Positions 18,199 through 60,920 of a stretch of DNA of 64,000 nucleotides are shown here, one piece after another. The notes beneath the pieces were generated by a model, which made no database searches, was not told the DNA's origin, and saw only the letters and a list, made by a program, of their open reading frames with translations. The number at the start of each line of letters is the position of its first letter. The first letter of the stretch is position 1. The translations under genes were made by a program, and so were the position numbers. The DNA comes from Polyangia bacterium (GTDB lineage: Bacteria; Myxococcota_A; Polyangia; JAAYKL01), in NCBI GenBank assembly GCA_050304755.1, contig JBNLED010000218.1, positions 18,489 to 82,488 on the forward strand, written 5' to 3'.

Positions 18199-19317
18199 TC
18201 ACTGACAGTCGTGGTTGAGCTCGACCCCGCGATCCTCGAGGGCCGCGATATCTCCCTGAGTGACGGGATCGTCGCAGTCGAGAGGGTTGTCGTCGATACG
18301 CACCCTGTCGCCATTCCCAACGCCGGGGTTGCTCACGAGCGCCGAGAGGTCGGTGATGTTGTTGTCGTCGAGGAGGAGATCAACCAGGTCGGCCAAGCCG
18401 GCCAGGGGCGAGAGGTCGCTGACGCTGTTTTCGCTGAGGAAAAGGAGTGTCAGGTCGCCCATACCGGCCAGGGAGGAGATATCGCTGATGCGGTTGCCCC
18501 AGAGGTAGAGGACCGTCAGGTCGGTCAGGTCGGCCAGGGACGAGATGTCGCTGAGGTCATTCGAGTAGAGGTAGAGCTCTTTCAGCTGGGTCAGGCCGGC
18601 CAGGGGCGAGACGTCGCGGAGGTCGTTGGAGCTGATGTAGAGGACCGTCATGTCGGTCATGCCGGCCAAGGGCGTCAGGTCGCTGATTTGGTTGCTGGAA
18701 AGGTTGAGGATCGTCAGCAGGGTCATGCCGGCCAAGGGCGAGATATCGCGGATTTGGTTGCGGTAGAGGGAGAGATCCCTCAGGTCGGTCAGGCCGGCCA
18801 AGGGCGAGATGTCGACGATGAAAATGTTTAAATTGAGGTTGAGTTCGCGGAGGTGGGTCAGGCCGGCCAGAGGCGAGATGTCGGTGATGCCGGAAAAGAA
18901 GCGATAGACATCCGCCTCCAGGTTAAGAGACCTCAGGCCGGTCAGACACTGGATGCCGGTCAACTCTGAGATCTCCCCTCCGTTCGCGGACAATTCACGC
19001 AGATCGTCGACATCATCATAGTAAATGTCCCCGCTCGACTTTCCAATCGCATCCCTCACCCGTTCCAACAAATACTCATCCGGAAAGTCAATCGGACCGC
19101 GGCATCCTTGAGGCACAGTCATATCACTTTCCGTCCCGGCGGCGGTGTCGACTTCAGTGTCTGCGAAGAACTTTGAGTCCGTATCCGTAACCACGTCCGT
19201 ATCACCGTCGGTCGAACGGTCTCCCTCGCCCACCGTGGCCTCATCCCCTCCCGTAACTCTGCGGCATCCGGATGCCCCCCACATCCCTACAAGAATAGTA
19301 AGTACGATCAGCTTCAT
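18199..19317 (-). CDS. leucine-rich-repeat (internalin-like) lipoprotein
   Basis: Lipobox GASGC, Asp/Thr-rich linker, then 10 or more 22-residue LRRs (L.DLS.N.ISDISPLAGLT.L..L.L). Confidence 0.85.
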   Translation of the reverse strand: MKLIVLTILVGMWGASGCRRVTGGDEATVGEGDRSTDGDTDVVTDTDSKFFADTEVDTAAGTESDMTVPQGCRGPIDFPDEYLLERVRDAIGKSSGDIYYDDVDDLRELSANGGEISELTGIQCLTGLRSLNLEADVYRFFSGITDISPLAGLTHLRELNLNLNIFIVDISPLAGLTDLRDLSLYRNQIRDISPLAGMTLLTILNLSSNQISDLTPLAGMTDMTVLYISSNDLRDVSPLAGLTQLKELYLYSNDLSDISSLADLTDLTVLYLWGNRISDISSLAGMGDLTLLFLSENSVSDLSPLAGLADLVDLLLDDNNITDLSALVSNPGVGNGDRVRIDDNPLDCDDPVTQGDIAALEDRGVELNHDCQ

Positions 19318-19373: not shown

Positions 19374-20867
19374 TTACGGCGTCCCTGCGAACGTGGTCAC
19401 GCTGCGAGCGGGCAGCTCATAGGTGAAGCGGGACTCGCTGACGGACACAGCGGTTTTGGCGGCCAGGTCGTCGCTGGACGAGGTCACCCAGGGGATCATG
19501 GCGCACGGCGCGGCGTCCTCGATGAAGACCGAGAGCGCGGTGGCGCTGTTGTTGTTGTTGGCGGCCACCACGACGACGGTGCCGTCGCCCGGGTCCTTGT
19601 AGGCCGACAGGAGCACCCCCGCGGGCACGCTGCCCGAGGTGACCACCCGGAGGAAGTCGGGTCTCGCGAAGCGGCTGTAGTTCCCCATGACCCAGAGCCG
19701 CTTGGTGGGCTGATTGGTGTTGAGATCCCAGAGGGCCCCGTTGTCATCGCAACAGGGATAGACCCACCAGAAGTGCCACGCGCTCATGTTGATACGGGTC
19801 AACGAGTCGTGCATCATCGCGACGACTCGGAGGGCGCTGTCCATCCCCGTGTCCGCGACGTTCGATTCCTGGTCATAGATCTCGGTCTGCCAGAACTCCA
19901 TCCCGGCCGCCGCGATTTCCGGGTAGGGGACCTTCCAGGTCTGATCCCTGCACCCGTATTCGTGGGTGGCGAGGATGTCGGTATAGGACGCGGCCGTCCC
20001 GTTGCCGAGGATCGCGTCGACGTACTGACCGAACCCGCACCAGTTCTGGCTCTCCCCCGCCATGATCCGCACCCCGGTTCCCTCCAGCGCGGGGCCGAGG
20101 TGGTCGGCGACGAAATCGGCCATCTGCGGTCCGGTGTAATCGCACGACTCGTAGTCCACCGTGGCGTCCGGCTCGTTTTGCACGGACACGGCATAGAGGT
20201 CCACGCCGTTCGACTGCATGGTGCTCACGAAGGCGGCGAGGGTAGTGGCCCATCCCGCGCCGTCGGTAAGCGTCCCCCCGACGTCGCTGTTGTTCGACTT
20301 GAAAGACGGCGTGGGGGTCCAGGGGGTCGCCCAGACAAGGGCGCCGCGGGCGACGGCCATCTTGGCGATATTGGTCTCGGAGGTGCCGCCGTCCGGCGCG
20401 ATCCGGATGCGATGTAGGGAGAGCCCCGCCCCGCTCTCGGTGGACCAGAGCAGGTCCGCGTCCGACTCGCTCATGCTGGATCCCCACGCGGTGGAGGCGC
20501 CGAATCCGGCGATCCGCTGCTGTTCACCGGAGAGCTGAATCACCACATCACCGCCCGACGGGGTCCCGCCACCGCAGACATCGGTGTCCGCGTCCGTATC
20601 CGCGTCCGTGTCTGCATCGGTATCCGCATCCGTATCCGCATCTGTATCCCCGTCGGCATCTGAGTCTGTATCTGTGTCCGTGTCCGTGTCCGTGTCGGTA
20701 TCTGCATCGGCGTCGGTATCCGCGTCCGCGTCGGTATCCGCATCTCCGCCCATGCCGGTATCCTGACCGCCGGCGTCTACCGCGTTTTCATTGCTATCGG
20801 AGCAGCCCGACGCGAGCGCGTTCGCCCAGACAGCGCATAAGGTCAGCAATAATCCAGAGAGTCGCAT
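19374..20867 (-). CDS. glycoside hydrolase family 30-like (xylanase/glucosylceramidase clan) lipoprotein with poly-(DT/DA) linker
   Basis: Lipobox LASGC, a (DADT)n linker, GFGASTAWGS and the catalytic-region motif SVQNEPD. Confidence 0.75.
   Translation of the reverse strand: MRLSGLLLTLCAVWANALASGCSDSNENAVDAGGQDTGMGGDADTDADADTDADADTDTDTDTDTDTDSDADGDTDADTDADTDADTDADTDADTDVCGGGTPSGGDVVIQLSGEQQRIAGFGASTAWGSSMSESDADLLWSTESGAGLSLHRIRIAPDGGTSETNIAKMAVARGALVWATPWTPTPSFKSNNSDVGGTLTDGAGWATTLAAFVSTMQSNGVDLYAVSVQNEPDATVDYESCDYTGPQMADFVADHLGPALEGTGVRIMAGESQNWCGFGQYVDAILGNGTAASYTDILATHEYGCRDQTWKVPYPEIAAAGMEFWQTEIYDQESNVADTGMDSALRVVAMMHDSLTRINMSAWHFWWVYPCCDDNGALWDLNTNQPTKRLWVMGNYSRFARPDFLRVVTSGSVPAGVLLSAYKDPGDGTVVVVAANNNNSATALSVFIEDAAPCAMIPWVTSSSDDLAAKTAVSVSESRFTYELPARSVTTFAGTP
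20578..20745 (-). repeat. tandem 6/12-bp repeat (GTATCCGCATCC-like) encoding (DADT)n
   Basis: Visible short-period repeat within the GH30 gene. Confidence 0.8.
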
Positions 20868-28204: not shown

Positions 28205-30007
28205 ATGAGGGGACAAGGGATTTGCCTCGCGATTGCCGCGGGGCTGGTAGTTCTGGCCTGCGGAGATCGCGCCCCCGTGACCGCCGGCGTCGATACGGAT
28301 ACCCGACACGGCGGCGTCACGCTCCTCGCGGATACCGCGACGGTCGAGGGTGACACCGCGACCGCCGGGGGCGACACCGCCTCCGCCCGGGGCGACACCG
28401 CCTCCGTTGAAGAAACGCCGGTGACGCTCGAGAATATCGAAGTGCTGCTCAATCCGTACGGACGGGCTCCCCTCACGGCGATCATCAAGGTGACCCACCC
28501 GCTCCTGGTGCCGGAGGAGGTGAGATCGATCCGGGTGACCGTCGAGGGCCAAGGGGATCCGCCGGAGGATCTGGTCGCCGAGCTCGACCCCCGATCGGAG
28601 GCGTACAGGACGAGCTTCGACATGGGCGATCAGGTGTTCGCGGGGGAGTTGGGGATTCCCGTGCTGGGGCTCTATCCGGAGTCGGACAACCGGATCGGGC
28701 TCGAGGTCGGCACCCCTGATGCGACTTTTCGCGGGGAGGTGGTGATCACCACCGACGTCATCCCGGAGCTCGAGGGGGAGACGGCCCGCGTCCAGGTCCT
28801 CGATCCGGATCGCATCGAGCCCGGGTGGACCTATATCGACAAGCGGGTCTACGACCACCAGGGGCGCTGCCGCTGGATCGGTCCGCGGCTCTACCACATC
28901 CTCGAGAATGGCAACATCCTCATCGCCATCGACGAATACAACTGGCTCGGCCGGCGCGTCAGGGATCGGAGCCTGTCGAGGCAGTTCGAGTTCCATCACG
29001 ACGCCATCGGGCTCGGGAACGGCAACTACGTGGTCTGTGTCAACGACCCCGAGACGACCATCGTCAACGCCTTCGGCGAGCTCGTCACCGAAGAGGACCA
29101 AGCCGTGGAGGTGGACGGGGAGACCCGGGAGATGGTCAATGTGTGGGACATGAGGGGGGTGCTGGACGTGGACCGGCACACGGTCTCCCTGAACTACCAA
29201 GGGGCGGACTGGTTTCACATGAACACCGTGACCTACAGCGCCGCGGATGATGCCCTGCTGTTCTCCGGACGGTACCAGGGGATCGTCAAGATGACCCGGG
29301 ACGGCGTCCACGGGGAGGCCCCGAACGCGGGCAAGTCCCTCGTCTGGATTCTGGCCCCCCACATGGGCTGGGGGCCGTCAGGGCCGGACGGCGAGGGGGA
29401 TATCGATCCCAACGACTACCTGCTCACCGCGGTGGACTCCGAAGGTCGCCCCTATCCGGAGGAGGTCCAGAACAACCTGGCGCCCCCTTCGGCGGACCGG
29501 GAGGCGTTCTACTGGCCCATAGGGCAGCACGGCATCGAGATCACTGATCGGGAGGAGGGGAAGATCGCCTTTCTCACCTTCAACAACCAGGCGTCCTTTA
29601 TCTTCGACGGCGAGGACACCATCGACAACGGGGTGACGACCGCCAAGCAGGGAGACCTGAGCAACGACCGCGCCGAGGAGCCCTTCAGCCAGATCATCGA
29701 GTACGAGGTGGACGAGGTCGCCATGACGGTCCGGCAGAAGTGGAGCTTCGGCGAGTATCGCAGCGAGCTCTACGGCGCCTACAACTCGGACGTGTGCGTA
29801 TTGCCCGTTACCCGGAACCGGATGATGACCACCAACGGCGCGGACTGGCACGAGGACAGGCCGCCCCACCCCCACGTCATCGAGATGACCCTGGAGGGGG
29901 AGGAGCTGTATCACCTGGAGATCGAGAACGCGACCTTCTCCGCCATGCGCGGCGGGCGCATCGATCTCTACCACCCGGAGCGACTGGCGCCGCGGTCGAA
30001 CCGATGA
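28205..30007 (+). CDS. arylsulfotransferase (ASST)-family-like beta-propeller lipoprotein
   Basis: Lipoprotein signal LVVLACG. FEFHHDAIGLGNGNYVV, WDM, DWFHMNTV match ASST (PF05935-like) motifs (by recall). Confidence 0.65.
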   Translation: MRGQGICLAIAAGLVVLACGDRAPVTAGVDTDTRHGGVTLLADTATVEGDTATAGGDTASARGDTASVEETPVTLENIEVLLNPYGRAPLTAIIKVTHPLLVPEEVRSIRVTVEGQGDPPEDLVAELDPRSEAYRTSFDMGDQVFAGELGIPVLGLYPESDNRIGLEVGTPDATFRGEVVITTDVIPELEGETARVQVLDPDRIEPGWTYIDKRVYDHQGRCRWIGPRLYHILENGNILIAIDEYNWLGRRVRDRSLSRQFEFHHDAIGLGNGNYVVCVNDPETTIVNAFGELVTEEDQAVEVDGETREMVNVWDMRGVLDVDRHTVSLNYQGADWFHMNTVTYSAADDALLFSGRYQGIVKMTRDGVHGEAPNAGKSLVWILAPHMGWGPSGPDGEGDIDPNDYLLTAVDSEGRPYPEEVQNNLAPPSADREAFYWPIGQHGIEITDREEGKIAFLTFNNQASFIFDGEDTIDNGVTTAKQGDLSNDRAEEPFSQIIEYEVDEVAMTVRQKWSFGEYRSELYGAYNSDVCVLPVTRNRMMTTNGADWHEDRPPHPHVIEMTLEGEELYHLEIENATFSAMRGGRIDLYHPERLAPRSNR

Positions 30008-30026: not shown

Positions 30027-31781
30027 ATGATAGTTACTTTAGGGCATTTGAGTATTGTCGGCCTTCTCTTCTTTGGAGCGGCGTGCGGCGATCACGCCCC
30101 CTTCCGCCCTTTGGAGGAGGAGGGGGACACCGTACCGATCCCCGATTCCGATCCCGTCATCCTTCTCGAGTCGATCGGGAGTGACACCGGAGAGGTCGAG
30201 GTCGAGGCCGCCACCCCCCTTCCGGAGGAGAGCGTCGAGGTCCTGCTGAACCCCTACGACAGCGCGAAGCTCGCGGCCATCGCCGTCGTCCGCCACCCCG
30301 ACGTCTCCCCCGAGGCGGTGGACGAGATGCGCATCACCGTCACCGGTCAGCGGGGGGCGGAGAACCTCACAGCGATGCTCGATCCCCGATCGGCGGCCTT
30401 CGAAGCCCACTTCGGCATGGACGATCAGCTGGCCGACGGGGAGGTGGGCGTCCCAATCCTCGGGCTGTTCGCGGGCCTCGTGAACGAGGTGGCGATCGGG
30501 CTCCGCGTCGAGGAGACGTGGTACGAGGGTCGAGTCGACATCCCGGTGGAGCCGATCCCCGAGCTCGACGAGGAGAGCGTGACCGTCGACCTCATCGCGC
30601 CCGAACGGATGGCGCCGGGGTGGACCTACCTGAACGGCCGGGTCTACGATCACCAGGGCAACTGCCGGTGGATGGGCCGCAAGATCTTCCACCTCCTCGA
30701 CAACGGCAACATCCTCTCCGGGATCGACGAGCGCAACTGGCTCGGACGGAACGTCAACAACCGGAGCCTGCCGGGCCACCTGGGCTTCCACCACGACGCC
30801 GTCGATCTGCCGAACGGAAACATCGTGGCCTGTATCAACAACCAGGAGACCACGGTGGTGGACGCCTTCGGAGACAAGATCACGAGCGTCGAGGACTACA
30901 TCGTCGAGCTGGACCCGGCGGGCGAGATCCGGAACGCGTGGGACATGCGGGAGTTCCTGGACGTGAACCGGGGCACCGTGGCGAGCCTCGGGGACGACTG
31001 GTTTCACATGAACACCCTGGCCTACGACGAGCAGGACGACGCGCTCCTGGTCTCGGGGCGCTTCCAGGGCATCGTGAAGGTCACCCGGGGGGGGATCCGG
31101 GGGGAGACGGCCAACGCGGGCAAGGCGCTGGTGTGGATCTTGGCCCCCCACCTGGACTGGGGCCTGGCGGGGCCGGACGGCGCGGGGGATATCGATCCCA
31201 ACGACTACCTGCTCACCGCGGTGGATTCGAACGGAACGCCTTACGCCCAGGCGGTCCAGGACAACCTCGCGGCGCCGGAGCCGGGGGAGGAACCGTTCCA
31301 CTGGCCGGTGGGGCAGCACGGCCTCGAGATCACCGAGCGCGGCGAGGGCCGGCTCTCAATTCTCACCTTCAACAACCAGGCCTCCTTCATCTTCGACGGC
31401 GAGGGGACGGTGGACAACGGCGCCGGGCTCACCTTCGAGGGGGACCTGAGCAACGACCGCGCCGAGGCGCCCTACAGCATGATCATCGAGTACGAGGTGG
31501 ACGAGATCGCCATGACGGTCCGGCAGAAGTGGAGCTTCGGCGAGGGGGAGCACGACTGGTACGGCGGGTTCGCGTCCGGCGTGGCGCAGTTGGGGACCAC
31601 GGGGAATCGCATGATGATCTCCAACGGCGCGGAGCAGCTGCACATGCGGATCAACCCGTACAACCCCCACGTTATCGAGGTCGCCGAGGACGGGGAGATC
31701 CTCTATCACTTTGAGGCGGTGGACACCCAGGAATCGGCGCACCGCGCCGGCCGGATCGACCTCTATCATCCCAGCCCCTGA
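30027..31781 (+). CDS. arylsulfotransferase (ASST)-family-like lipoprotein, tandem paralog of 28205..30007
   Basis: Roughly 60% identical by eye to the upstream gene (FHHDAVDLPNGNIVACIN, DWFHMNTL, GRIDLYHP). Signal LLFFGAACG. Confidence 0.65.
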   Translation: MIVTLGHLSIVGLLFFGAACGDHAPFRPLEEEGDTVPIPDSDPVILLESIGSDTGEVEVEAATPLPEESVEVLLNPYDSAKLAAIAVVRHPDVSPEAVDEMRITVTGQRGAENLTAMLDPRSAAFEAHFGMDDQLADGEVGVPILGLFAGLVNEVAIGLRVEETWYEGRVDIPVEPIPELDEESVTVDLIAPERMAPGWTYLNGRVYDHQGNCRWMGRKIFHLLDNGNILSGIDERNWLGRNVNNRSLPGHLGFHHDAVDLPNGNIVACINNQETTVVDAFGDKITSVEDYIVELDPAGEIRNAWDMREFLDVNRGTVASLGDDWFHMNTLAYDEQDDALLVSGRFQGIVKVTRGGIRGETANAGKALVWILAPHLDWGLAGPDGAGDIDPNDYLLTAVDSNGTPYAQAVQDNLAAPEPGEEPFHWPVGQHGLEITERGEGRLSILTFNNQASFIFDGEGTVDNGAGLTFEGDLSNDRAEAPYSMIIEYEVDEIAMTVRQKWSFGEGEHDWYGGFASGVAQLGTTGNRMMISNGAEQLHMRINPYNPHVIEVAEDGEILYHFEAVDTQESAHRAGRIDLYHPSP

Positions 31782-37930: not shown

Positions 37931-40879
37931 ATGCGCTTAATCGGCCTTATATTGGGAATCCTTGTCGTGTCCCAAAGCTGTATTTCATGCAAAACGGTGA
38001 CTCACGCGGACGAGGACACTCAGACGGACTCGGAGACCGAGACGGGCGCGCCGGGAACGGGCGACGGCACCGAAGACGCGCCCCCCACCGACGACCGTGA
38101 CTCGGCCACCGAAGCGCCGACCGACCTCCCGTCCGATTCCGACACCCCCTCTTCATGGGGGCGCGACTCGGCGTCCGACACCTGGCCGGAGTCGGACACG
38201 TCGACCGCGGACACCGGGGAGGATACGGAACCCCGAGGCACAGGGGAGGACACGGACCGGGGCACCGGGGAGGACACAGAGCCCGCAGGCACTGGGGAGG
38301 ATACGGAAACCGAGACCGCGTCAACCTGGGAGACGGACACCACCGATGCGATGACCCTCTCCATCGTCCCGCTGGCCGGAACCGAGACATACGCCTACCG
38401 CTATCTCAGCTTCTTCGCCGTTTGCACCACCCTCGACGGAACGCAGGAAGTCCAGCGGGAGTGCACGGATGAGGTGACCTGGCAGAGCTCGGACGAGGAG
38501 ATCGCCGAACCACAGTTCGGCGGAGAGGTTTATACCTGGTCCCTCGGCACGGCGACGATCAGCGCGACCCTCGGCCACGCGTCCGACGAGCTCACCATAT
38601 CCGTCCTCGAGGTGATCGGCGTCCAGGTCACCCCGGAGACGTTGACCGTGCCCCTCAACAGCGCAGATGCCCGATTCCACGCGGACTGCACCCTCTCGAG
38701 CGGCACGGTGGTGCCCTGCACCCAGGAGGGGGTTCAGTGGTCCTCGTCGTCCGAGGAGATCGCCGCCCCGACATCGCTTTTCGAGGGCAGGTTCGACCTC
38801 AAAGCGATCGGCGTGACTGAGATCGTCGCCACCTTCGATGATATCGTCTCCCCCCCCGTTACCCTCACCGTCACCCCGATCACCTGCGACGGCGTCATCG
38901 GTTTTCCGGACAAGGTCCTTCAGCGACATGTGGCCAAGGCCGTCGGTAAGACCGTCGGGAATATCACTATCGACGATGTGATCGATCTGACGGAGCTTCG
39001 GATTGACAACAGCGAGAACCTCGAGAGCGGCGCCCGGGGATTCGCCGTTTCCGATCTCACCGGCATCGAGTGCCTGACCCACCTCGAGACGCTCGTCATC
39101 GACAACCACGAGCTCTACACGGAGTTTCGGATCCTCAACGACGCCACCCCGCTCAAGGCCCTGACCGGGCTCAGGCATCTCGTCCTCACCGGGAACAACC
39201 TCCCGGACATCTCCTTCTTCGCCGGGATGCTCCTCCTCGAGACCCTCGACATCTCCTACAACGGCGTCCAGGACTACAGCCCCCTCGCCGCGCTCTCCAA
39301 TCTGACCGCGCTCGACATCTCGGGGAACCCGATTGATGATATCGGCTTCATCTCCGCGTTCGAGAACCTGACGCGGCTGTCGGCGACGTGTCATCCCCTG
39401 TGGAACCAGAACGAAAACGATTACGCGTCCGTCGCCACGGACTGCCGGAACGGAATCACCGACTACGCCCCGCTCAGGGACCTGACGCGACTGACCGATC
39501 TGAGCCTCTGCTCCAGGACCGTCATCGACGGGGGCGCGCTCGCGGGCCTCGACGCGCTCGTCACCCTGAGCCTTCGCGCCCCGGCTCTCGAGAACCTGTC
39601 GGCCCTCGACGGGGCGGCGGATCTTCGACACCTCGCGTGCGATCTCGGCGACCTCACCGAGCTCCCCTCCCTCGAGGGGCTCACCCAGGTAGAGACTCTC
39701 GATCTGAGCAACAACGCGCTCGAAGACGGCGAGACACTGTCGAACCTCGCCGCCATGACATCCCTCGCGGAGCTGAGCCTGGCGCACAACCGGATCGCCA
39801 CCGCGCCGGATCTCTCGGGGCTCGACCGGCTGGCCGTCCTGAGCCTCTCCGAAAACGTTCTGACGGACACCTCGGGGCTCACCGAGCTCCCGGAATTGGC
39901 GCACCTCGACCTCTCCCACAACCGGCTCGAGGCGCCGCCGGATCTGGCGGCGCCGGAGCAACTCGAATTCCTCGACTTCAGCTTCAACGCGCTCCACGAT
40001 CCCGCCTCCATCGCGTCCATGACCGCCCTGGTGACCCTGGATCTCTCCAACAACCCGCGGACCACCCTGCCGAGCCTCGACGGCCTGGACGACCTGACGG
40101 AGCTCGTCCTCGACGCCACCCAGATCGAGGATCTCTCCCCGGTCTCCGGAATGGAGCGCCTGACCCGCCTCTCGGCGATGAGCTGCGGCCTGGTCGAGCT
40201 GCCCCCGTGGACCGGACTCGACGCCCTCGCCACCCTCGATTTGAGTGACAACCAGCTGAGCGATATCTCCGGCCTCGCGCGCCTGGTCGGCCTCGAAGAG
40301 GTCAACCTCTACCAGAACCGGATCACCGACCTCCCCGACCTCGACGCGCTCGAACACTTGAGGGAGCTCGACCTGAGCTACAATGACATCGCCGATATCA
40401 CCCCCCTCTCGTCGCTCGCCGGGCTCGAGATCCTCGGCGTCGGCGGCAACCGGCTGTCCGAGTCCCCGGATCTCGACGGCTTCGAGCACCTGACGACGCT
40501 CGATATCGCCGGGAACCGTCTCCGGGATCTGTCGGCCTTCTACACCCTGACCCGGCTTCGTCGCCTCGATATCAACAGTAACGACTTTGTCGAAATCGAA
40601 GACATGTCGCCCTTCGCGGCCCTCGAAGAGCTGTCCACGGACAACCTCATCGGCGGCCTGGCGTTCCTGAACGATCTCCCCGAACTCGGGACCCTGTTCA
40701 TCTTCGCGCTCAACGTCCCCCTCACCGACCTCGACGTGCTCGTCGCCCACCCAGGCATCGACGCCGGCGACACGGTATACATCTACAGCCGGCCCCTCGA
40801 CTGCACGGCTCCGGCCCTCCGCGATGATATCGACACGCTGAGCGACAGGGGCGTCACGCTGAACATCACCTGTAACTAG
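37931..40879 (+). CDS. giant surface protein: lipoprotein signal, (TGEDTEP) linker, bacterial Ig-like (Big_2-like) domains, then about 25 LRRs
   Basis: Signal VVSQSCISC, TGEDTEPRGTGEDTDRGTGEDTEPAGTGEDTE repeats, LRR units L..L..LDLS.N.L.D. Ends DCTAPALRDDIDTLSDRGVTLNITCN, similar to the tail of the 18199 LRR protein (LDCDDPVTQGDIAALEDRGVELNHDCQ). Confidence 0.8.
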   Translation: MRLIGLILGILVVSQSCISCKTVTHADEDTQTDSETETGAPGTGDGTEDAPPTDDRDSATEAPTDLPSDSDTPSSWGRDSASDTWPESDTSTADTGEDTEPRGTGEDTDRGTGEDTEPAGTGEDTETETASTWETDTTDAMTLSIVPLAGTETYAYRYLSFFAVCTTLDGTQEVQRECTDEVTWQSSDEEIAEPQFGGEVYTWSLGTATISATLGHASDELTISVLEVIGVQVTPETLTVPLNSADARFHADCTLSSGTVVPCTQEGVQWSSSSEEIAAPTSLFEGRFDLKAIGVTEIVATFDDIVSPPVTLTVTPITCDGVIGFPDKVLQRHVAKAVGKTVGNITIDDVIDLTELRIDNSENLESGARGFAVSDLTGIECLTHLETLVIDNHELYTEFRILNDATPLKALTGLRHLVLTGNNLPDISFFAGMLLLETLDISYNGVQDYSPLAALSNLTALDISGNPIDDIGFISAFENLTRLSATCHPLWNQNENDYASVATDCRNGITDYAPLRDLTRLTDLSLCSRTVIDGGALAGLDALVTLSLRAPALENLSALDGAADLRHLACDLGDLTELPSLEGLTQVETLDLSNNALEDGETLSNLAAMTSLAELSLAHNRIATAPDLSGLDRLAVLSLSENVLTDTSGLTELPELAHLDLSHNRLEAPPDLAAPEQLEFLDFSFNALHDPASIASMTALVTLDLSNNPRTTLPSLDGLDDLTELVLDATQIEDLSPVSGMERLTRLSAMSCGLVELPPWTGLDALATLDLSDNQLSDISGLARLVGLEEVNLYQNRITDLPDLDALEHLRELDLSYNDIADITPLSSLAGLEILGVGGNRLSESPDLDGFEHLTTLDIAGNRLRDLSAFYTLTRLRRLDINSNDFVEIEDMSPFAALEELSTDNLIGGLAFLNDLPELGTLFIFALNVPLTDLDVLVAHPGIDAGDTVYIYSRPLDCTAPALRDDIDTLSDRGVTLNITCN

Positions 40880-40924
40880 AGTCTCGGGTCAAAATATAGC
40901 TTCCAATCTGGCAATTGCTGTGCC

Positions 40925-41200
40925 CGTCCGGCAAGAACTTTAGGGACGGAGACAGCTGCTTCATCCGCTTCAAGGACTACAAGAGGAACTTTGGGGACGG
41001 AGGCAGCGAACTGCGGAACTTTGGGGAACTTTTGGGACGGAGGCCGCTGGGAACTTTAGGGACGGAGACAGCTGGACCAGAACTTTGGGCCGGCAGGGTC
41101 CGATTGCGTCGTCTGATGGATGCGATCAATCCGTCGCCACCTCCGGGGCTCTCCATGGCCTCCGTCCCTACATTCCCGTCCCCGTCCAAGCCGCAGTAAC
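40925..41200 (+). repeat. array of 4-5 GAACTTTRGGGACGGAGRC units plus CAATCCGTCGCCACC, inverted relative to the array at 43381..43607
   Basis: Direct visual alignment of the units. Shares the GGGACGGAGG core and the CAATCCGTCGCCACC block with the downstream cluster in opposite orientation. Confidence 0.6.
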
Positions 41201-41370
41201 CCCACCGGGTGTCAAGGCGGTTTACACAACGTAAGCCGTCGTTTCATCAAAGACGGGCTGCTTCTGCCCGCCGGAGCAACGAAGATCCGAGTCATTTGGT
41301 GTTGATGCCGGCGCCGGCGCCTCCTGGTGTCTCCGTTGCATCCGAATGGAGACGAAAGGAGGACAGCGCA

Positions 41371-42192
41371 ATGATGAGAGCAAGCCGCCGTTCGGTCATA
41401 TCGGTCCTGGCGCTGATGATGTTGAGCCCCGTACCGGCGTCGTCGGAACCCCTCCCCGGGACGTTCGACGACAACCGCGCCGCCGCCCGGATTCGGGAGA
41501 TCGCCGACGCGTTCTATCCGAACTACGACGCGGGGCTGTGCCCCTATTACGGCCGGATCTGGAAGGATGAGTACGCGACGAAGCAGACCTTCGGGGATAC
41601 CGGAACGACGGTCTGGAGACACTACACCGAGGCCCTGGCGGCCGCGGGGCTCTCCCCGGAGCGGCTAGACTGCACCCTATACGCCAAGGAGATCCTCAAG
41701 GCGGGGCTCCACCGGCGGGACTACCGGCGGCTCTGGCGGGAGCACCACAAGATATGGAAGGATGACGGGTTCTCGGGCTGGAGCGTCGGGTACCTCCTCA
41801 CCGAGAAGTTCGGCTGGCGGGCCTACGCCGTCATCGATCCGGAGGCGCCGGACTACGCCTACTACACGAGCTTCTTCGAGAACCGGAACGAATACCCGGT
41901 GTGGCGGCAGCCCAACATCCCCATCGCGGGGTACTTCATCGCGGGCAGGGACGACTCGGCCATCGAGGCGCTGCTCCGCCGACATCCCTTCGGCTGGGGC
42001 TTCAGCGAGGGGGGGATCCACACCTGGATCACCCAGGGGACGGACCTCAGGGAGTGTCACTTCGACAGCGGCCCCTCGAGGCGCTACGACGCCGACAAGC
42101 CCTACCGCCTGCTGGAGTCCACCCGCTTCATCCGCTTCAACGACTACAACGTCCACCTGGTGGTCTTCCCCCCGGAAGCCGATCCGCAGTGA
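41371..42192 (+). CDS. secreted hypothetical protein (Trp/Tyr-rich; conserved-looking Cys, His, Asp could form a papain/transglutaminase-like triad)
   Basis: AGGAGG RBS. Signal SVISVLALMMLSPVPASS. No recognisable family. Confidence 0.6.
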   Translation: MMRASRRSVISVLALMMLSPVPASSEPLPGTFDDNRAAARIREIADAFYPNYDAGLCPYYGRIWKDEYATKQTFGDTGTTVWRHYTEALAAAGLSPERLDCTLYAKEILKAGLHRRDYRRLWREHHKIWKDDGFSGWSVGYLLTEKFGWRAYAVIDPEAPDYAYYTSFFENRNEYPVWRQPNIPIAGYFIAGRDDSAIEALLRRHPFGWGFSEGGIHTWITQGTDLRECHFDSGPSRRYDADKPYRLLESTRFIRFNDYNVHLVVFPPEADPQ

Positions 42193-42229
42193 CCGAACCG
42201 CCCCTGTCGTAAAGAAATCCCCATCAATA
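42186..42229 (+). repeat. 44-bp direct repeat copy 1 (GCAGTGACCGAACCGCCCCTGTCGTAAAGAAATCCCCATCAATA), covers the stop codon of 41371..42192
   Basis: Second copy at 43611..43654 with 1 mismatch. Brackets the transposase and its REP array. Confidence 0.8.
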
Positions 42230-42565
42230 CGGATGGGGACGGGGGAATGCCCCGTGCCTCGAGGACGGCGCCTTTGTCGTCTCCGGTCAGGCGCATCCGG
42301 GGGACATCTTCGGTCGTGGCGAGCCCGGGGAGACGGTGCTCTATGCCGACAGCTTTCCCGGCGAGCCGGGGATCCTGATGCATTTTTCGCTGAGTACCGT
42401 AACGACGGTACCCTGTCAGGGGAGAGAGGACACCCGTTCAGAGCGGCGAAAACGCAGTGGCGGCCCGGCCGGCTTTTCAGGGTCAAAACGGGTTGACGAA
42501 AAGCGAGGGACACCTGGAACGCAGGCGGCGCCAGCGACCGTGATCAGGTTACAGCAGTTGACTTA

Positions 42566-43291
42566 TCACTTCTTGGAGACCCCGGCGTCCGGATCCCCTC
42601 GGGAACAGGGGAGGACCGACAAGCCGTCAGTTTCAATTGTGGCGCCCAGAGGCGTCTCGCCCCGTTCCGATGGTCGGTCGTCGATCAGGCCGTTCTTCCT
42701 GAGATACTCGTCGCAGAGCTCGCGGTACCGCTTCTGTCTTTCTGCAGCGCTCTTTCCGAGGGAGAGGTATTCCCGCGGCATCGTGAGCATCCCAGTGAAC
42801 CACGACTTCTTGCCGTTGGCGTAGAACTGGTACGTGGAGTAGGCGTAGCGCGACGGATGGCTCACCATCCCGGCGCGGACGGGATTGGCGTCACCGTAGA
42901 ACATCACCTCGAGCAGCCTCCCCTTGGCATCGATCTCTTTTGTTTTGGGGCGGTCATAGGCCACCTTGCCCTGTCTTCGGTGTCGGCGGTTGTATCCGGC
43001 GCCGAACCGAGAATGGGCGTTTCGCATCCAGTTGCCGAAGGCCTTCAGGCAATCCTCGAGGGGGTGATTGGCGTAGTCGAGCTGTCCGGTCTCATGGGGG
43101 TGGTTGCTCATGATGCAGAAGGAGAAGAAGCGCACGAACTGCAGTATACCGGGGGTCAGGGTTTTTTGGAGGCTGGCCAGGTAGGCGTTTTTGTCCTCGC
43201 TGGATTCGAGGACCCTCTCGCGATTATGTCCCCGCCACATCTTGTGAAAGATGCCGGTGGTACGGATGGTATCGCGTCGGGCCCGTCTCAT
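42566..43291 (-). CDS. IS200/IS605-family (RayT-like) HuH Y1 transposase
   Basis: HPH (HuH) motif in CIMSNHPHETGQ, C-terminal Tyr region YAYSTYQFY, ~240 aa. The annotated ORF's N-terminal 96 aa merely translate the REP array (IGGTEVP repeats) and were trimmed. Confidence 0.7.
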   Translation of the reverse strand: MRRARRDTIRTTGIFHKMWRGHNRERVLESSEDKNAYLASLQKTLTPGILQFVRFFSFCIMSNHPHETGQLDYANHPLEDCLKAFGNWMRNAHSRFGAGYNRRHRRQGKVAYDRPKTKEIDAKGRLLEVMFYGDANPVRAGMVSHPSRYAYSTYQFYANGKKSWFTGMLTMPREYLSLGKSAAERQKRYRELCDEYLRKNGLIDDRPSERGETPLGATIETDGLSVLPCSRGDPDAGVSKK

Positions 43292-43380
43292 GCGGAGGAT
43301 GAGGAGCAAGAAGCCTGCCAAAAGTCGATTCGTGACATTACAGAGAGTTAGCCGATAAATCGCTGAAAAGGGCGGCGACG

Positions 43381-43607
43381 AGAACAGTGCTACACCGCCA
43401 GAGGGCCAATCCGTCGCCACCCTTGGGACCTCCGTCCCTCCGATCTTCTCCAACCCTGCTCCGATCTCTGGGACCTCCGTCCCTCCGATTTCCGATCTTC
43501 GATCTCTTGGGACCTCCGTCCCTCCGATCTCGATCTCTTGGGGACCTCCGTCCCTCCAACCCTCCTCAACCCTCCTCAACCCTCCGGCCTCCGTCCCTCT
43601 CCGATCT
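43381..43607 (+). repeat. REP-like palindromic unit array (4x TTGGGACCTCCGTCCCTCCGATCT plus degenerate copies)
   Basis: GGGAC-CTCC-GTCCC is an imperfect palindrome (hairpin). Lies immediately 5' of the Y1 transposase and is the reverse complement of the 40925..41200 array core. Confidence 0.7.
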
Positions 43608-43610
43608 CTC

Positions 43611-43654
43611 GCAGTGACCGAACCGCCCCTGTCGTAAAGAAATTCCCATCAATA
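43611..43654 (+). repeat. 44-bp direct repeat copy 2
   Basis: See 42186..42229. Confidence 0.8.
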
Positions 43655-43730
43655 TATCAGGAATATAACGGTGGTCATGGGATGGGTTCCGCTGCATCCA
43701 CTTGTTCGACTTTGAAAAGTCACGACGGGC

Positions 43731-44255
43731 TCAGTGCTCGACCGTCGACGCGACCGTCGGCACCCCCCGGGTGGCCGGGATCTCTCCTTGCCCCACCACC
43801 GCGATCTTGAGGGGGGACGGGGGGGCGCCGAGCAGGAGCGTCTTGTCCGTCGGGGTTCCCGTTATCTGACCGCGGGCTATGACCACGTCACCGGGACGGA
43901 GATACGCCACGAAGAATCTCCGCTTCTTGTTCCCCTTGACCAGCCCCGAATCCTGGTGCAGCCCCTTGGGCTTGACCTGCTCGCCGGAGGCGGTGACCTG
44001 AATGCATCCCGTGTCGTCCGCGATGGTGAACTCGGCACAGCGAACCTCGAAGGTCTCGGGAAACCAGAGCGGCCGCCCCTGTCCGCGCGCCCCTTTCTTG
44101 AAGCGCTCCTCCATCAGCGAGTAAAACACGCACCCCATTCCGGTCGGCGGGATCTTGAGGCAGCGGTCGCACTGAACCACCCCTCTGATTGTACGGGTGC
44201 TCCCGGGAACGAGGTCCCCGATGTCGGTTTTCTTGTGAAGCCACGGCAAAAACAT
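43731..44255 (-). CDS. hypothetical protein (174 aa, C..C/GMGC cysteine pairs; no family recognised)
   Basis: 41 bp downstream of the HPF-like gene on the same strand, so a likely two-gene operon. Confidence 0.5.
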   Translation of the reverse strand: MFLPWLHKKTDIGDLVPGSTRTIRGVVQCDRCLKIPPTGMGCVFYSLMEERFKKGARGQGRPLWFPETFEVRCAEFTIADDTGCIQVTASGEQVKPKGLHQDSGLVKGNKKRRFFVAYLRPGDVVIARGQITGTPTDKTLLLGAPPSPLKIAVVGQGEIPATRGVPTVASTVEH

Positions 44256-44296
44256 TCAAGCCTCCGACGGTTTGGTGTGATCTGTCCCCTACCGAC

Positions 44297-44680
44297 TTAC
44301 TGGACTACCGATACCTCTGCAAGCCGTAAAGGGACTTTCATGAGAGCCCTGCCCCGGTTCTTTTGGAGGTGCTGATCCACCGCAAGGCTCGCCGCGTGGA
44401 ACGCCCGGCGGAGGGCGACGATGGCGTTGTCGTCCTCTTCCATGCCGTCCACCGCCTTGGTGACGATGATGTCGAGGTCCGGGGCGAAGACGCTCACCTG
44501 CGCGCGGACCTGATTGCCGCGCTGACGTCGCAGGTTCGGGACGTCGAGTTGGATCTTGAACCCCTCGATACCGGGATGCCGTCTCTGTATCCGTCCGGTC
44601 TCCTCGTCGATGATTTCGAGGAGGGGGTTGGGAGAGCTGATGTGCCGAAAGTGAGTGGCAATATTTCTTCTCATTTTCAT
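44297..44680 (-). CDS. possible ribosome hibernation factor / RaiA (YfiA/HPF short-form)-like protein
   Basis: GGAGG RBS then ATGAAAATG. ~128 aa. The C-terminal half AQVSVFAPDLDIIVTKAV...DNAIVALRRAFHAASLAVDQHLQK aligns by eye to HPF (ATLHVNGGEIHASAE.QDMYAAIDGLIDKLARQL.K). Tentative. Confidence 0.45.
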   Translation of the reverse strand: MKMRRNIATHFRHISSPNPLLEIIDEETGRIQRRHPGIEGFKIQLDVPNLRRQRGNQVRAQVSVFAPDLDIIVTKAVDGMEEDDNAIVALRRAFHAASLAVDQHLQKNRGRALMKVPLRLAEVSVVQ

Positions 44681-44759
44681 ACCTCCGTTGACGCATTTGG
44701 GCGCCGGATAGCGGACGAGGTCGCTGGGCGGCGCTTCGTCCATTGATGTGTCTCTCTCG

Positions 44760-45116
44760 TCAGACAGACACGGGGGTCGGAGGACTGTGCTTCGGGGCGG
44801 TCAGGAGCGGGGAACGCCGCGGTCTCGCGCCGGCCGCGGAAACGGCGCAATCCGCATTCGGCACAACGCAGCAACGGTCATCAGCGGGGGGGGAGTCGAC
44901 AGATGGACTGAAGCGCTGAGCCTCGTCGTCGGAGGTCTCCGCCGAAACGGCGAGCCGGTGGTCACGATATGACGGGCTGGCGGGATGACCGTCGAAGCCG
45001 CGGCGAAGCTGTTTACGGGGGGTGTCCCGCGATTCCTTCCCTGAGGCGCCTTCGGTCGTAAGCAGAACCCCGACGGTCATCAACAGGCTCCAGGTTGTCC
45101 AAGCAAATCGCATCAT
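44760..45116 (-). CDS. possible small secreted protein
   Basis: Signal-like MMRFAWTTWSLLMTVGVLLTTEGA, weak RBS. Could be a frame artifact. Confidence 0.25.
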   Translation of the reverse strand: MMRFAWTTWSLLMTVGVLLTTEGASGKESRDTPRKQLRRGFDGHPASPSYRDHRLAVSAETSDDEAQRFSPSVDSPPADDRCCVVPNADCAVSAAGARPRRSPLLTAPKHSPPTPVSV

Positions 45117-46302: not shown

Positions 46303-46583
46303 CCCGAGATCCCCAGCAGAGATCCTCACCCGAGTTATCCTTTATCTTTTAATTTAAAGGAGTTATAACTTTCTAGAAAACTTTTGGTCCTCTTCGTCCG
46401 ATAGGGAGGGCATGACACTGCCAAAACAAGGGCCGTGATGTAACGCCACACCGACAAAATCCGACCTGCGACCATCGGGAATAGGCTGATCGAGGGCTCG
46501 CAAAAGAATCGGCCGGGACTCAGAAAGGCGACGTCAACATTTCAACCCGGGTGGGGATTTTCTCAACCCGGGTGGGGATTTTC
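46303..46583 (+). mobile_element. MITE-like element copy A (degenerate left end, duplicated right TIR AACCCGGGTGGGGATTTT)
   Basis: Shares ~100 bp left and ~90 bp right blocks with copy B, including the GGTCCTCTTCGTCCGATAGGGAGGGCATGACACTGCCAAAACAA core. Confidence 0.6.
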
Positions 46584-46630: not shown

Positions 46631-48052
46631 TTGAATCCCAAATTGTTTTGCCGTTTGAGCACGGGCGGCGGTGGGCCTTATAACGCCTTAGTCGGTTTCC
46701 CGTGTTGGGCAGTCGCAGTCCTGTCGGGACTCACGGCGCTGCTCATGTGCTGCTCCGGCGCACCGGGCGATCGAAGAACCGCCACTCCTTCGGGGACTGT
46801 GACTGCCGATACCGTAGTCGACGCTCCCTGGAATGTCCCGAGCACACGCAGCGAATCGTCGTCATCGGTTTCACAGGTCACCAATCGCTGTCGCTGCGAA
46901 AGCCGGGCTTCGTTGCTCGGATGGGTCGGCTCCACCGCGGTCGTCAAGCGCGAGGACTGCTTCATACAGACGACGGACAATTCCCTCGATTGCGAGACAC
47001 GTTCCGTTCTGGCAGTGCGCAGCGTTGACGGGCGAACTGTGGTCGAGACGATAAGCGACGTACCGAGCGAGTTGATGCCCACCCCGAAAGCCGATACACT
47101 TGAGCTCGCGCGGCATCGAATTCTTTTGATTGAAGCATCGGATACACTATATTCATCCGTACGGCGTTACCTGCTGCGGGTCATCCCGGTCGACGGGGCC
47201 GCTGAGCTGCTCGACGAGAGTGTTGCGATCGCGCAGGATAGACGAACTTATCATTGCGGCAACGTCTCCCTATCCCAAACCCTGTCGGTCAGCGGCGACG
47301 GGGTGCATTTGGAGCACGATCCGGAGTTCGGCTGGGCACCGTCAGTGGACGGCGCGACGATCTTGGCGGTGACCGCATCGGAATCCGCCGGAGACCCGGG
47401 GGACGGGGATCCGGAGTTCGACTACCTCATGGCAGCGCCGGCCGAGCACACACCGAAGAGTATACTGCGCGCAAAATCGACGCCGTGCCGGGTCGTAACA
47501 CAATGGGGTTTCGACGGCAGCGAGGACGCGCATCCCGATGAGACCTTCTTGGGCTGGGACGGCGATCGAGCGGTGTTTGAGCCGTGGGGCGGGCATCCGT
47601 ACACGCTCGATCCGAGGCACAAATGTGCTCGCCGTCACGCAACCGGAACCGTTGATCCAAACCCGGGCCAACCGGTTTCGGGCAACTACGACATGTATCC
47701 GGAAAAGGAACGTGAGCGGGACGACCCGCAGCTGGTGCTGGTAACCGATGCCGACCCCGCGGTCCTTGAGAAGCAAATTGAAATGCTCATGGAAGCCTCT
47801 CCCACCGAGGCGCCCCCTGTGCCCACACACCTTCTCTTATTGTTGGTGTCTCCGCATCGGGTCCAAACAGCAGCGGCATGGACACAGTTGATGGGATACG
47901 TTTCCGGAGAAGCATCGAACCTGTCCGCCGCCTATCCTAGGCTCGCCGGTGCCTGTCGTTCGTTGAGCGGCAAGTCACTTCTCATCAATTTGTCGTTCGG
48001 CGATGCCGACGGTTTCGAAAACCATGTGATCGCGTTGCCGGAAGAGCAATAG
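46631..48052 (+). CDS. hypothetical lipoprotein (473 aa), lower GC than flanks, directly flanked by two MITE-like copies
   Basis: Signal AVAVLSGLTALLMCCSG. No family recognised. GC about 58% versus about 68% nearby. Confidence 0.6.
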   Translation: MNPKLFCRLSTGGGGPYNALVGFPCWAVAVLSGLTALLMCCSGAPGDRRTATPSGTVTADTVVDAPWNVPSTRSESSSSVSQVTNRCRCESRASLLGWVGSTAVVKREDCFIQTTDNSLDCETRSVLAVRSVDGRTVVETISDVPSELMPTPKADTLELARHRILLIEASDTLYSSVRRYLLRVIPVDGAAELLDESVAIAQDRRTYHCGNVSLSQTLSVSGDGVHLEHDPEFGWAPSVDGATILAVTASESAGDPGDGDPEFDYLMAAPAEHTPKSILRAKSTPCRVVTQWGFDGSEDAHPDETFLGWDGDRAVFEPWGGHPYTLDPRHKCARRHATGTVDPNPGQPVSGNYDMYPEKERERDDPQLVLVTDADPAVLEKQIEMLMEASPTEAPPVPTHLLLLLVSPHRVQTAAAWTQLMGYVSGEASNLSAAYPRLAGACRSLSGKSLLINLSFGDADGFENHVIALPEEQ

Positions 48053-48054
48053 GA

Positions 48055-48374
48055 GATCCCCACCCGGGTTATCCTTTATCTTTTGATTTCTAGGAGATCC
48101 AACTTTCTTGGAAACCTTTGGTCCTCTCCGTCCGATAAGGGAGGGCATGACACTGCCAAAACAAAACAGAAGATTTTTCTCTTCGCATTCCCGCGATGCC
48201 AACGGAGACGTTTGTCCACCGCGCAACTCCCGCCAGGATAGCGTGTCGTTTTGGCGACAAATCATCCGAAATCCGACCGGCGACCATCGGGTATAGGCTG
48301 ATCGAGAGCTCGCAAAAGAATCGGCTAGGACGCAGAATGGCGACGTCAACATTTTAACCCGGGTGGGGATTTTT
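48055..48374 (+). mobile_element. MITE-like element copy B (complete; TIRs GATCCCCACCCGGGTT / AACCCGGGTGGGGAT)
   Basis: 16-bp terminal inverted repeats read directly from the sequence. ~320 bp with no ORF. Confidence 0.65.
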
Positions 48375-60785: not shown

Positions 60786-60920
60786 TCCTTTATCTTTTGG
60801 AGATCCCCACCCAGGTTATCCTTTATCTTTTAATTTCAAGGAGATCCAACTTTATTGGAAACCTTTGGTCCTCTTCGTCCGATAGGGAGGGCATGACACT
60901 GCCAAAACAAGTATTGCCAA
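60786..60920 (+). mobile_element. MITE-like element copy C (duplicated left end plus conserved core, right half missing)
   Basis: CCCGGGTTATCCTTTATCTTTT appears twice, then ...GGTCCTCTTCGTCCGATAGGGAGGGCATGACACTGCCAAAACAA, identical to copies A and B. No right TIR follows. Confidence 0.55.

Follow-up and report, generated by a model that had tools for sequence, protein, structure and literature searches.

A probable TIRtron-type, insertion-sequence-like element and its miniature at a RayT-like transposase locus of a Polyangia bacterium

We analysed a 64,000-nt stretch of contig JBNLED010000218.1 from a Polyangia bacterium (the window; coordinates are positions in it), in which a minus-strand gene for a HUH/Y1 transposase lies close to arrays of a short repeated motif. 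The locus probably consists of one autonomous copy (42230-43609) and one miniature (40935-41169) of a TIRtron-type, insertion sequence (IS)-like element. By TIRtron we mean the gene of a RayT-like class 2 HUH/Y1 single-stranded DNA transposase bracketed by inverted copies of a family-specific short motif, here GGGGACGGAGG. The element is best described as a member of a Myxococcota branch of RayT-like transposases that is invisible to Pfam.

Organization of the full-length element and its transposase

The full element spans 1380 bp, and its edges coincide exactly with a 45-bp direct repeat recovered in the repeat listing. It consists, in order, of an array of left-end units, a subterminal hairpin, a promoter-like box, the transposase gene, a 320-nt non-coding tail and a right-end core:

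42230-43609, minus strand: full element, bounded exactly by the 45-bp repeat, with the layout seen in homologous loci
43425-43598, minus strand: left-end array, five units with the core GGGACGGAG(G) in gene sense, from repeat and motif scans
43368-43424, minus strand: left-end subterminal hairpin, AAGGGCGGCGACG ... CGTCGCCACCCTT, 13-bp arms with one mismatch and a 31-nt loop
43306-43320, minus strand: sigma54-like -24/-12 box TGGCAGGCTTCTTGC, 14 nt before the ATG, a consensus match with a putative promoter function
42566-43291, minus strand: transposase gene, 241 aa, HUH/Y1, RayT/TnpAREP-like class 2, from the open reading frame listing
42235-42245, minus strand: degenerate right-end core, GGGGACGGGGG on the plus strand and CCCCCGTCCCC in gene sense, at the family-typical position

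The five cores of the left-end array lie at 43430-43438, 43475-43483, 43514-43522, 43546-43554 and 43589-43597. Four units, starting at 43425, 43470, 43509 and 43541, contain the 14-nt palindrome GGGACCTCCGTCCC exactly and the fifth (43585-43598) is degenerate, in agreement with an earlier note on this DNA that had counted four or more palindromic units 5' of the gene. The hairpin formed by such a unit is minimal (5-bp stem, -4.3 kcal/mol) and is confined to the 43425-43598 array; the earlier note had described hairpins on both sides of the gene, but the units of the far array, at 40935-41169, do not fold. The subterminal hairpin at 43368-43424, which includes the CAATCCGTCGCCACC block, has a DNA folding energy of -18.5 kcal/mol (z = -3.3).

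At the other end, GGGGACGGGGG occupies the position expected of the downstream core, +1046 from the start codon, which is the family right-end position, and we therefore place the right end here and not at the far array. The same degenerate variant is found at one related locus (L016). The right-end core overlaps a small predicted hairpin (ACGGGG-GAATG-CCCCGT) and directly adjoins copy 1 of the 45-bp repeat. The earlier note had read the locus as a REPtron, in which repetitive extragenic palindromes (REPs) in inverted arrays flank a RayT gene. An inverted short motif does flank the gene, but the partner of the left end is the core at 42235-42245, not the array 2.3 kb away. Apart from this core, the family comparison detected no conserved sequence in the 320-nt 3' tail, an Rfam search of 40500-45000 gave no structured-RNA match, and no second transposase copy was found in the window. 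We counted 12 copies of the 9-mer GGGACGGAG in the 64-kb window (2.45 expected); none of 100 shuffles gave as many, and 10 of the 12 copies lie inside the two arrays (40943-41168 and 43430-43597).

The gene at 42566-43291, to which the earlier note had assigned HuH and Tyr motifs, indeed encodes a 241-aa protein with an NHPHE motif and conserved tyrosines. Across 36 aligned relatives, residues H64, H66, E67, Y132, N136, P137 and S152 do not vary, and S153 hardly varies. The class 2 HUH/Y1 core is thus present as HuH plus Y-x3-NP; Y-x3-NP together with an SS tail is the signature of class 2 (TnpAREP/RAYT; Quentin et al. 2018, PMC6006769). A Pfam search of the protein returned no match, including to Y1_Tnp (PF01797), for which only 2 of the 36 relatives gave a weak match. 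The NCBIfam model REP_Tyr_transpos (NF047646) matched with an E-value of 1.7e-7 and 31.3 bits against an equivalog cut-off of 80; all 36 relatives matched it as well (best E 2.5e-10), the scores seen being far below the cut-off. In the comparison of RayT and IS200 models raised in the earlier note, the class 2 motifs and the NF047646 match favor RayT, but the score stays below that model's cut-off and Pfam recognizes nothing.

We found 226 relatives in a search of 5.8 billion proteins, none with a Pfam domain on record. The hits with a named organism are nearly all from metagenome-assembled genomes (MAGs) of Myxococcota, 'Deltaproteobacteria' or 'Proteobacteria', with one labelled Chloroflexi. 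A profile search of 1.84 billion representatives extended this to 91 clusters at E <= 1e-30 and 6031 at E <= 1e-10. Five of ten sampled distant relatives (profile E ~1e-26 to 1e-57) pass the Pfam Y1_Tnp cut-off, and one distant relative (P0293) combines Y1_Tnp with a sub-threshold Bac_DnaA_C, which is the subclass 2.1 (TIRYT) architecture. Among the listed hits of the 36 relatives at E <= 1, there was no match to a C-terminal helix-turn-helix (HTH) of the Bac_DnaA_C, HTH_23 or HTH_28 type; the C-terminus of the window protein (residues 210-241) is predicted to be disordered. Sequence searches of the PDB, with the single sequence and with the profile, gave nothing meaningful, and only fold comparison produced matches, with E. 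coli TnpAREP (4er8) as the better match and the TnpA proteins of IS608 and ISDra2 also among them. Taken together, the Y-x3-NP/SS signature, the NF047646 matches and the distant relatives carrying Y1_Tnp and Bac_DnaA_C indicate, at the level of sequence, that the 241-aa protein is a divergent, shorter neighbor of the TIRYT branch of RayT-like enzymes and not an IS200 TnpA. In annotation terms, Pfam overlooks the family, and the NCBI records seen leave it unnamed or enter it as 'hypothetical protein'.

Motif arrangement and copy number in the family

To compare the element with its relatives, we assembled loci from scans of genomes (24 loci) and metagenomes (53 loci), plus several retrieved by exact look-up, and mapped the position and orientation of the motif in more than 60 of them. 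The core GGGACGGAG is found in gene sense, 110-380 nt before the start codon, usually iterated one to nine times (GGGGACGCAG is the core variant in one MAG), and the inverted core CTCCGTCCC follows 250-400 nt past the stop codon, at about +970 to +1160 from the start codon. Among homologues of at least 45% identity, 16 of 19 loci have the upstream core and 11 of 14 the inverted downstream core, while the opposite orientation is seen at 1 of 19 upstream and at 0 of 14 downstream. The core is kept across homologues down to about 45% identity and across host G+C contents of 0.36-0.70. The conserved feature of the family is this linear 9-11-nt core; the palindrome of the window copy is not conserved in the relatives. 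DNA following the innermost left-end unit has a tendency to fold across the family (mean z of -0.95 for 29 loci, p = 4e-4), and one subfamily has a perfect GGTGTCCGGAATCCGGACACC palindrome in its subterminal region. Inverted doublets resembling REPINs occur at three loci (L018, L019 and L086). Where both ends of a related element were recovered, its length is mostly about 1.2-1.4 kb. One further array, at +8 kb in L008, may be a coding GDGDAD repeat and not an element end, and was not counted.

A box of the form TGGC-N8/9-TG[CAT] precedes the transposase gene at 20 of 25 loci, and in 12 of them it lies 14-15 nt from the ATG. A box matching the sigma54 consensus (TGGCA-N6-TTGC) occupies the same position at L001, L002, L008-L010, L020, L022, L086, L088 and others. 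A promoter scan found no sigma70-like promoter for the transposase gene. With a sigma54-type box so placed, the transcript would need an activator and have almost no leader, an unusual arrangement for a transposase.

The relatives are multi-copy and IS-like, not single-copy domesticated genes. The Polyangia MAG F1F2.bin.2 contains at least nine copies, 79-100% identical over about 1.16 kb, often at contig ends and in unrelated genomic contexts. Four copies, one of them truncated, with 72-81% nucleotide identity are present in MAG MO_167.B37, three proteins of 69-86% identity in QNJ97, a sister assembly of the same organism as MO_167.B37, and at least four paralogues of 72-84% amino acid identity in the 'Proteobacteria' MAG GY847. 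In a sister assembly of our source organism, two contigs (L003 and L006) end inside the transposase gene at 42973 and 43009, 35 bp apart. These breaks hint at additional near-identical copies, or at strain heterogeneity, in the source organism; they are compatible with further copies and do not prove them.

Dispersal of the motif as a free-standing repeat, as the earlier note had envisaged for a REP, is not seen in the window, where the 62 kb outside both arrays contain two cores against 2.2 expected by chance. About 400 kb of flanking DNA from all loci contain 53 cores against 8 expected, concentrated in a few miniatures and solo arrays. Most MAGs have no cores in their flanks, and about 200 kb around relatives in other MAGs hold none. 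The locus of a 33%-identical homologue (L065) contains 13 copies of GGGACGGAG within 8.6 kb, against 0.12 expected. Twelve of these 13 cores (L065, 3180-8231) share one orientation, and seven lie in an intact 774-aa DsbD-like open reading frame, in three reading frames. Most of these seven fall in loops or linkers, and they include an in-frame tandem duplication of GAPRDGVVD.

The miniature copy, the 45-bp repeat and the neighboring genes

The far array was described in the earlier note as a core array at 40925-41200, and we recover there four GGGACGGAG cores on the plus strand (40943-41067) and one on the minus strand (at 41160). Its features are:

40935-41169, minus strand: miniature, transposase-less derivative, from repeat and motif scans; a comparable element exists at L022
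40953-40982, plus strand: 30-nt gene fragment, a 27/30 match (core 24/25) to 42120-42149, E 1.7e-7

Four right-end-type units (40935-41074), a GGTGGCGACGGATTG block (41127-41141) and one left-end-type unit (41157-41169) make up the array. Read in element orientation from 41169 to 40935, it begins with the left-end-type unit GGGACGGAGGCC, continues with the GGTGGCGACGGATTG block, which is one arm of the left-end hairpin of the full element, and ends, about 90 nt on, with the four right-end-type units. The CAATCCGTCGCCACC block, which the earlier note had taken to be inverted between the two arrays, is a direct repeat (41127 and 43407). Transposase-less derivatives are found elsewhere in the family: in another MAG, L022 contains at 12811-13060 a miniature in which a left end, up to just before the promoter box, is joined to a right end, and L025, in a third MAG, carries a solo array of nine right-end units. 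Since the array at 40935-41169 has its own left-end unit, block and right-end units, and such derivatives exist at L022 and L025, it is read as a separate miniature derivative, as its sequence suggests, and not as a partner end or the outer arm of a REPtron. The gene adjoining the miniature on its upstream side (37931-40879) encodes a secreted-looking protein of 982 aa. Its N-terminus is acidic and of low complexity, and the protein also contains a Big_2 domain and an extended series of leucine-rich repeats.

The fragment at 40953-40982 matches the 3' coding end of the 273-aa gene at 41371-42192 and is lodged between two units of the miniature, 400 bp upstream of that same gene. Within an array, the prefixes of the units are uniform, and they differ between 90-97% identical copies of one MAG. 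At L014, L015, L025 and L026, copies of the element from one MAG that are roughly 80-97% identical internally, the upstream arrays (about -360 to -190 from the gene start) have copy-specific prefixes before GGGGACGCAG, namely ACTTC-, GTTGTC- and GGTCAT-. The copy-specific prefixes and the 30-nt gene fragment inside the miniature suggest that end units may be duplicated together with adjoining DNA.

The element is bordered by a repeat with the following features:

42185-42229, plus strand: 45-bp repeat copy 1, the last 8 bp of the 273-aa gene and 37 bp of its 3' flank
43610-43654, plus strand: 45-bp repeat copy 2, continuous with the 3' flank of the 174-aa gene
42217-42240, minus strand: palindrome across the junction of right end and target, TCCCCATC-AATACG-GATGGGGA, followed by a T-rich run

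The two copies of the repeat are identical at 44 of 45 positions and have 1380 bp between them. A direct duplication thus brackets the transposase segment, as the earlier note had it, but the repeat takes in only 8 bp of the 273-aa gene, to whose end the note had assigned all of it. A 30-nt stretch of it has no other match in the window. Both junctions between repeat and element were independently assembled in sister assemblies of the same organism, which rules out mis-assembly. None of 13 further family loci whose flanks are long enough on either side to reveal a flanking direct repeat has one; the 45-bp repeat is therefore neither a regular target duplication nor a trait of the family, and the remark in the earlier note that target duplication is unusual for Y1 transposases stands.

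The palindrome at the right-end junction has 8-bp arms (42218-42239), to which the stem reported by the scan adds a ninth pair, and it was flagged as terminator-like on the transposase strand. The half on the target side is identical to an inverted 8-nt stretch of the terminal unit of the element itself, and the sole mismatch between the two 45-bp copies (42219 C vs 43644 T) falls inside it. The bases adjoining the repeat share CCGATC on both sides, and GATCGG belongs to the left-end unit of the window subfamily (also at L086).

The empty site would be a 113-nt spacer between two convergent genes, in which ...GCCGATCCGCAGTGACC...CCCATCAATA would be joined to TATCAGGAATATAAC. The earlier note had looked to relatives for such a site, and none was found. 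Three further assemblies or reads from the same organism (L003-L007) either have the site occupied or break off within the repeat or within the gene. The best homologue of the 273-aa gene on a long contig, 63% identical, lacks synteny with the window, and exact look-ups of P0001 and P0157 gave no match. The most economical reading of the 45-bp repeat is the reintegration of a circle: a circle containing the element and 45 bp of flank, on recombining across those 45 bp, would leave the order repeat-element-repeat. Alternatively, the element could have inserted through widely staggered nicks, or the repeat could stem from repair synthesis at a fork.

The genes that follow the second repeat copy are:

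43731-44255, minus strand: 174-aa gene, weak OB-fold matches
44297-44680, minus strand: 127-aa HPF-like gene, sub-threshold HPF/S30AE match

Both had been proposed as passengers in the earlier note. They lie outside the repeat-bounded element, and the typical size of related elements (about 1.2-1.4 kb) leaves room only for the transposase gene, so that neither is a passenger. The proposed HPF/RaiA-like identity of the 127-aa protein comes down to a sub-threshold Pfam match to PF02482 (HPF/S30AE; E 0.036, 15 bits against a cut-off of 23.7), and the 174-aa protein has only weak Pfam matches, to OB-folds. The 273-aa protein has no Pfam domain; MAGs of Myxococcales and Bacteroidota are among the sources of its few homologues with organism labels, and the gene context at the single locus inspected is unrelated. 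The 273-aa, 174-aa and HPF-like genes are ordinary neighbors in a convergent intergenic region.

The window contains other repeats besides those described above. Unrelated dispersed repeats of 105-113 nt, 88-95% identical, are intergenic at 46319-46430, 46457-46561, 48052-48164, 48269-48373 and 60799-60911. Tandem repeats with a period of about 70-85 nt occupy 12340-12690, with an inverted partner 8 kb off at 20580-20751, and a second tandem block lies at 18343-18889. The segments 28760-29920 and 30555-31715 (1.2 kb, 73% identical) are probably paralogous genes.

Comparison with known systems and alternative readings

RAYT-like genes flanked by terminal inverted repeats (TIRs) instead of REPs have been described as TIRtrons, or TIRYT (Di Nocera et al. 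2013, PMC3733652). Many of these TIRs share the sequence GGGGWSAS and lie at similar distances from the gene, some form dimers or clusters, and they are moderately abundant (PMC3733652). TIRYTs have mostly been equated with TnpAY1 subclass 2.1 (Quentin et al. 2018, PMC6006769). The element in the window resembles this group in its RayT-like Y1 gene with TIRs at roughly fixed distances, which are not classical REPs, and in a protein of about 240 aa with the Y-x3-NP motif and SS tail. Both systems have a G-rich repeat motif, GGGGWSAS there and GGGGACGG/GGGGACGC here; the window core fits seven of the eight GGGGWSAS positions, differing at position 7, and the outer units of L002, GGGGACAG, fit it fully. 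Motifs occurring as singles, dimers or clusters, a moderate abundance and frequent occurrence in 'delta-proteobacteria' are further shared traits. TIRYT is reportedly roughly equivalent to RAYT Group 1 of Bertels et al. 2017. Unlike the published examples, the protein here falls below the Pfam Y1_Tnp threshold and has no C-terminal DnaA_C/HTH domain such as subclass 2.1 carries, the ends consist of arrays with as many as about nine units and copy-specific spacers, the family reaches at least nine copies per MAG against a published mean of 1.9, and the window copy has its 45-bp flanking duplication.

If the locus is indeed a TIRtron-type element, the 241-aa protein would be transcribed from the sigma54-type promoter 14 nt before its ATG and would bind the motif units and the hairpin on single-stranded DNA. 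By analogy with TnpAREP and IS608 TnpA, it may cut and rejoin DNA through Tyr132 with a metal bound by H64 and H66, and this activity would move the element. The arrays may grow locally, an end unit being duplicated along with a few adjoining bases.

Several points weigh against this assignment. The right end of the window copy is a single degenerate core, and the protein fails the family cut-offs of both Pfam and NCBIfam. Inverted ends are awkward for the single-strand 'peel and paste' of Y1 enzymes, which needs both cuts on one strand, and we know of no HUH/Y1 mechanism that would account for the 45-bp repeat. For the source genome, of which 64 kb were available, we found no transposition intermediate, empty site or identical second copy. 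Finally, REP-like spread does occur somewhere in the wider family, given the dense cores at L065.

This last point bears on the possibility of a genuine REPtron, that is, a domesticated single-copy RayT with GGGACCTCCGTCCC REP/REPIN hairpins in tens to hundreds of copies and arrays representing clusters like bacterial interspersed mosaic elements. The RayT-like fold and motifs, the inverted units flanking the gene, the REPIN-like doublets at L018, L019 and L086 and the 13 cores in 8.6 kb of one distant relative all agree with it. We consider it unlikely, as the core is at chance level outside the arrays of the window (2 in 62 kb vs 2.2 expected) and absent from about 200 kb around relatives, the relatives are multi-copy, the hairpin is minimal and not conserved, and the equivalog cut-off is missed with 31 bits against 80. 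In comparison with the E. coli REPtron (RayT/TnpAREP, PDB 4er8), there are no GTAG-tagged palindromes of 20-40 nt, the unit is not dispersed in the window, the relatives are multi-copy, and the window protein has 16% sequence identity to 4er8. A canonical IS200/IS605 element, with left-end and right-end hairpins on the same strand, is barely credible. It would share the HUH/Y1 fold (IS608 and ISDra2 TnpA are among the structural matches) and subterminal hairpins, and target duplication is not normal in either system; but the ends here are inverted and not co-oriented, the protein of 241 aa is 90 aa longer and has Y-x3-NP instead of Y-x3-Q, there is no Pfam Y1_Tnp match, and 4er8 is the better structural match. 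No tnpB was called inside the related elements with gene calls seen, and at 1.38 kb the window element is too small to hold one in addition to its transposase gene.

The two arrays could also be taken as the ends of one composite unit of 2.7 kb, with 43425-43598 and 40935-41074 as its ends, the 273-aa gene as its cargo, and the core at 42235 and the 45-bp repeat as scars of rearrangement. In its favor, both outer arrays are multi-unit and mutually inverted, and the far array includes a piece of the 273-aa gene. It is nonetheless improbable, because the 45-bp repeat bounds the 1.38-kb segment exactly, the inner core lies at the family-typical distance from the gene, the far array has a left-end-type unit and block of its own, like the L022 miniature, and no such element accompanies a homologue of the 273-aa gene with 63% identity. 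Alternatively, the upstream arrays could be activator-binding enhancer sites for the sigma54 promoter of a domesticated HUH gene and not transposon ends at all. The box stands at a fixed distance from the ATG at 20 of 25 loci, and the usual range of sigma54 enhancer sites overlaps the 110-380 nt upstream of the start codon where the arrays lie. This explanation does not provide for the inverted recurrence of the motif downstream of the gene, for miniatures and solo arrays without a promoter, or for copies in unrelated contexts within one MAG, and we regard it as quite improbable.

Within the TIRtron-type assignment, there is a more far-reaching possibility, which we rate as conceivable though not likely: that the Myxococcota family is a still-mobile, uncharacterized RayT-like branch that reads a short linear 11-nt motif, not a hairpin, and duplicates an end unit together with host DNA each time it acts. 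This would explain the differing array spacers, the 25-30-nt gene fragment in the miniature and the 45-bp duplication. If true, it would be a target-duplicating chemistry new for HUH/Y1 transposases, possibly under sigma54 control, and the 45-bp duplication and the sigma54-like promoter are oddities that can be tested. TIRYTs are common in genomes, yet within the library searched only PMC3733652 and PMC6006769 mention the term, and no mechanism is known for them. The present family offers a clean study case, with a strongly conserved 11-nt core, multi-copy and recently diverged elements, miniatures and, in the L065-type relative, a genome where the core has spread into coding DNA. With its conserved core, multi-copy relatives, miniatures and the spread at L065, the family could reveal how an ordinary mobile element gives rise to REP-type repeats and how a Y1 enzyme copes with inverted ends.

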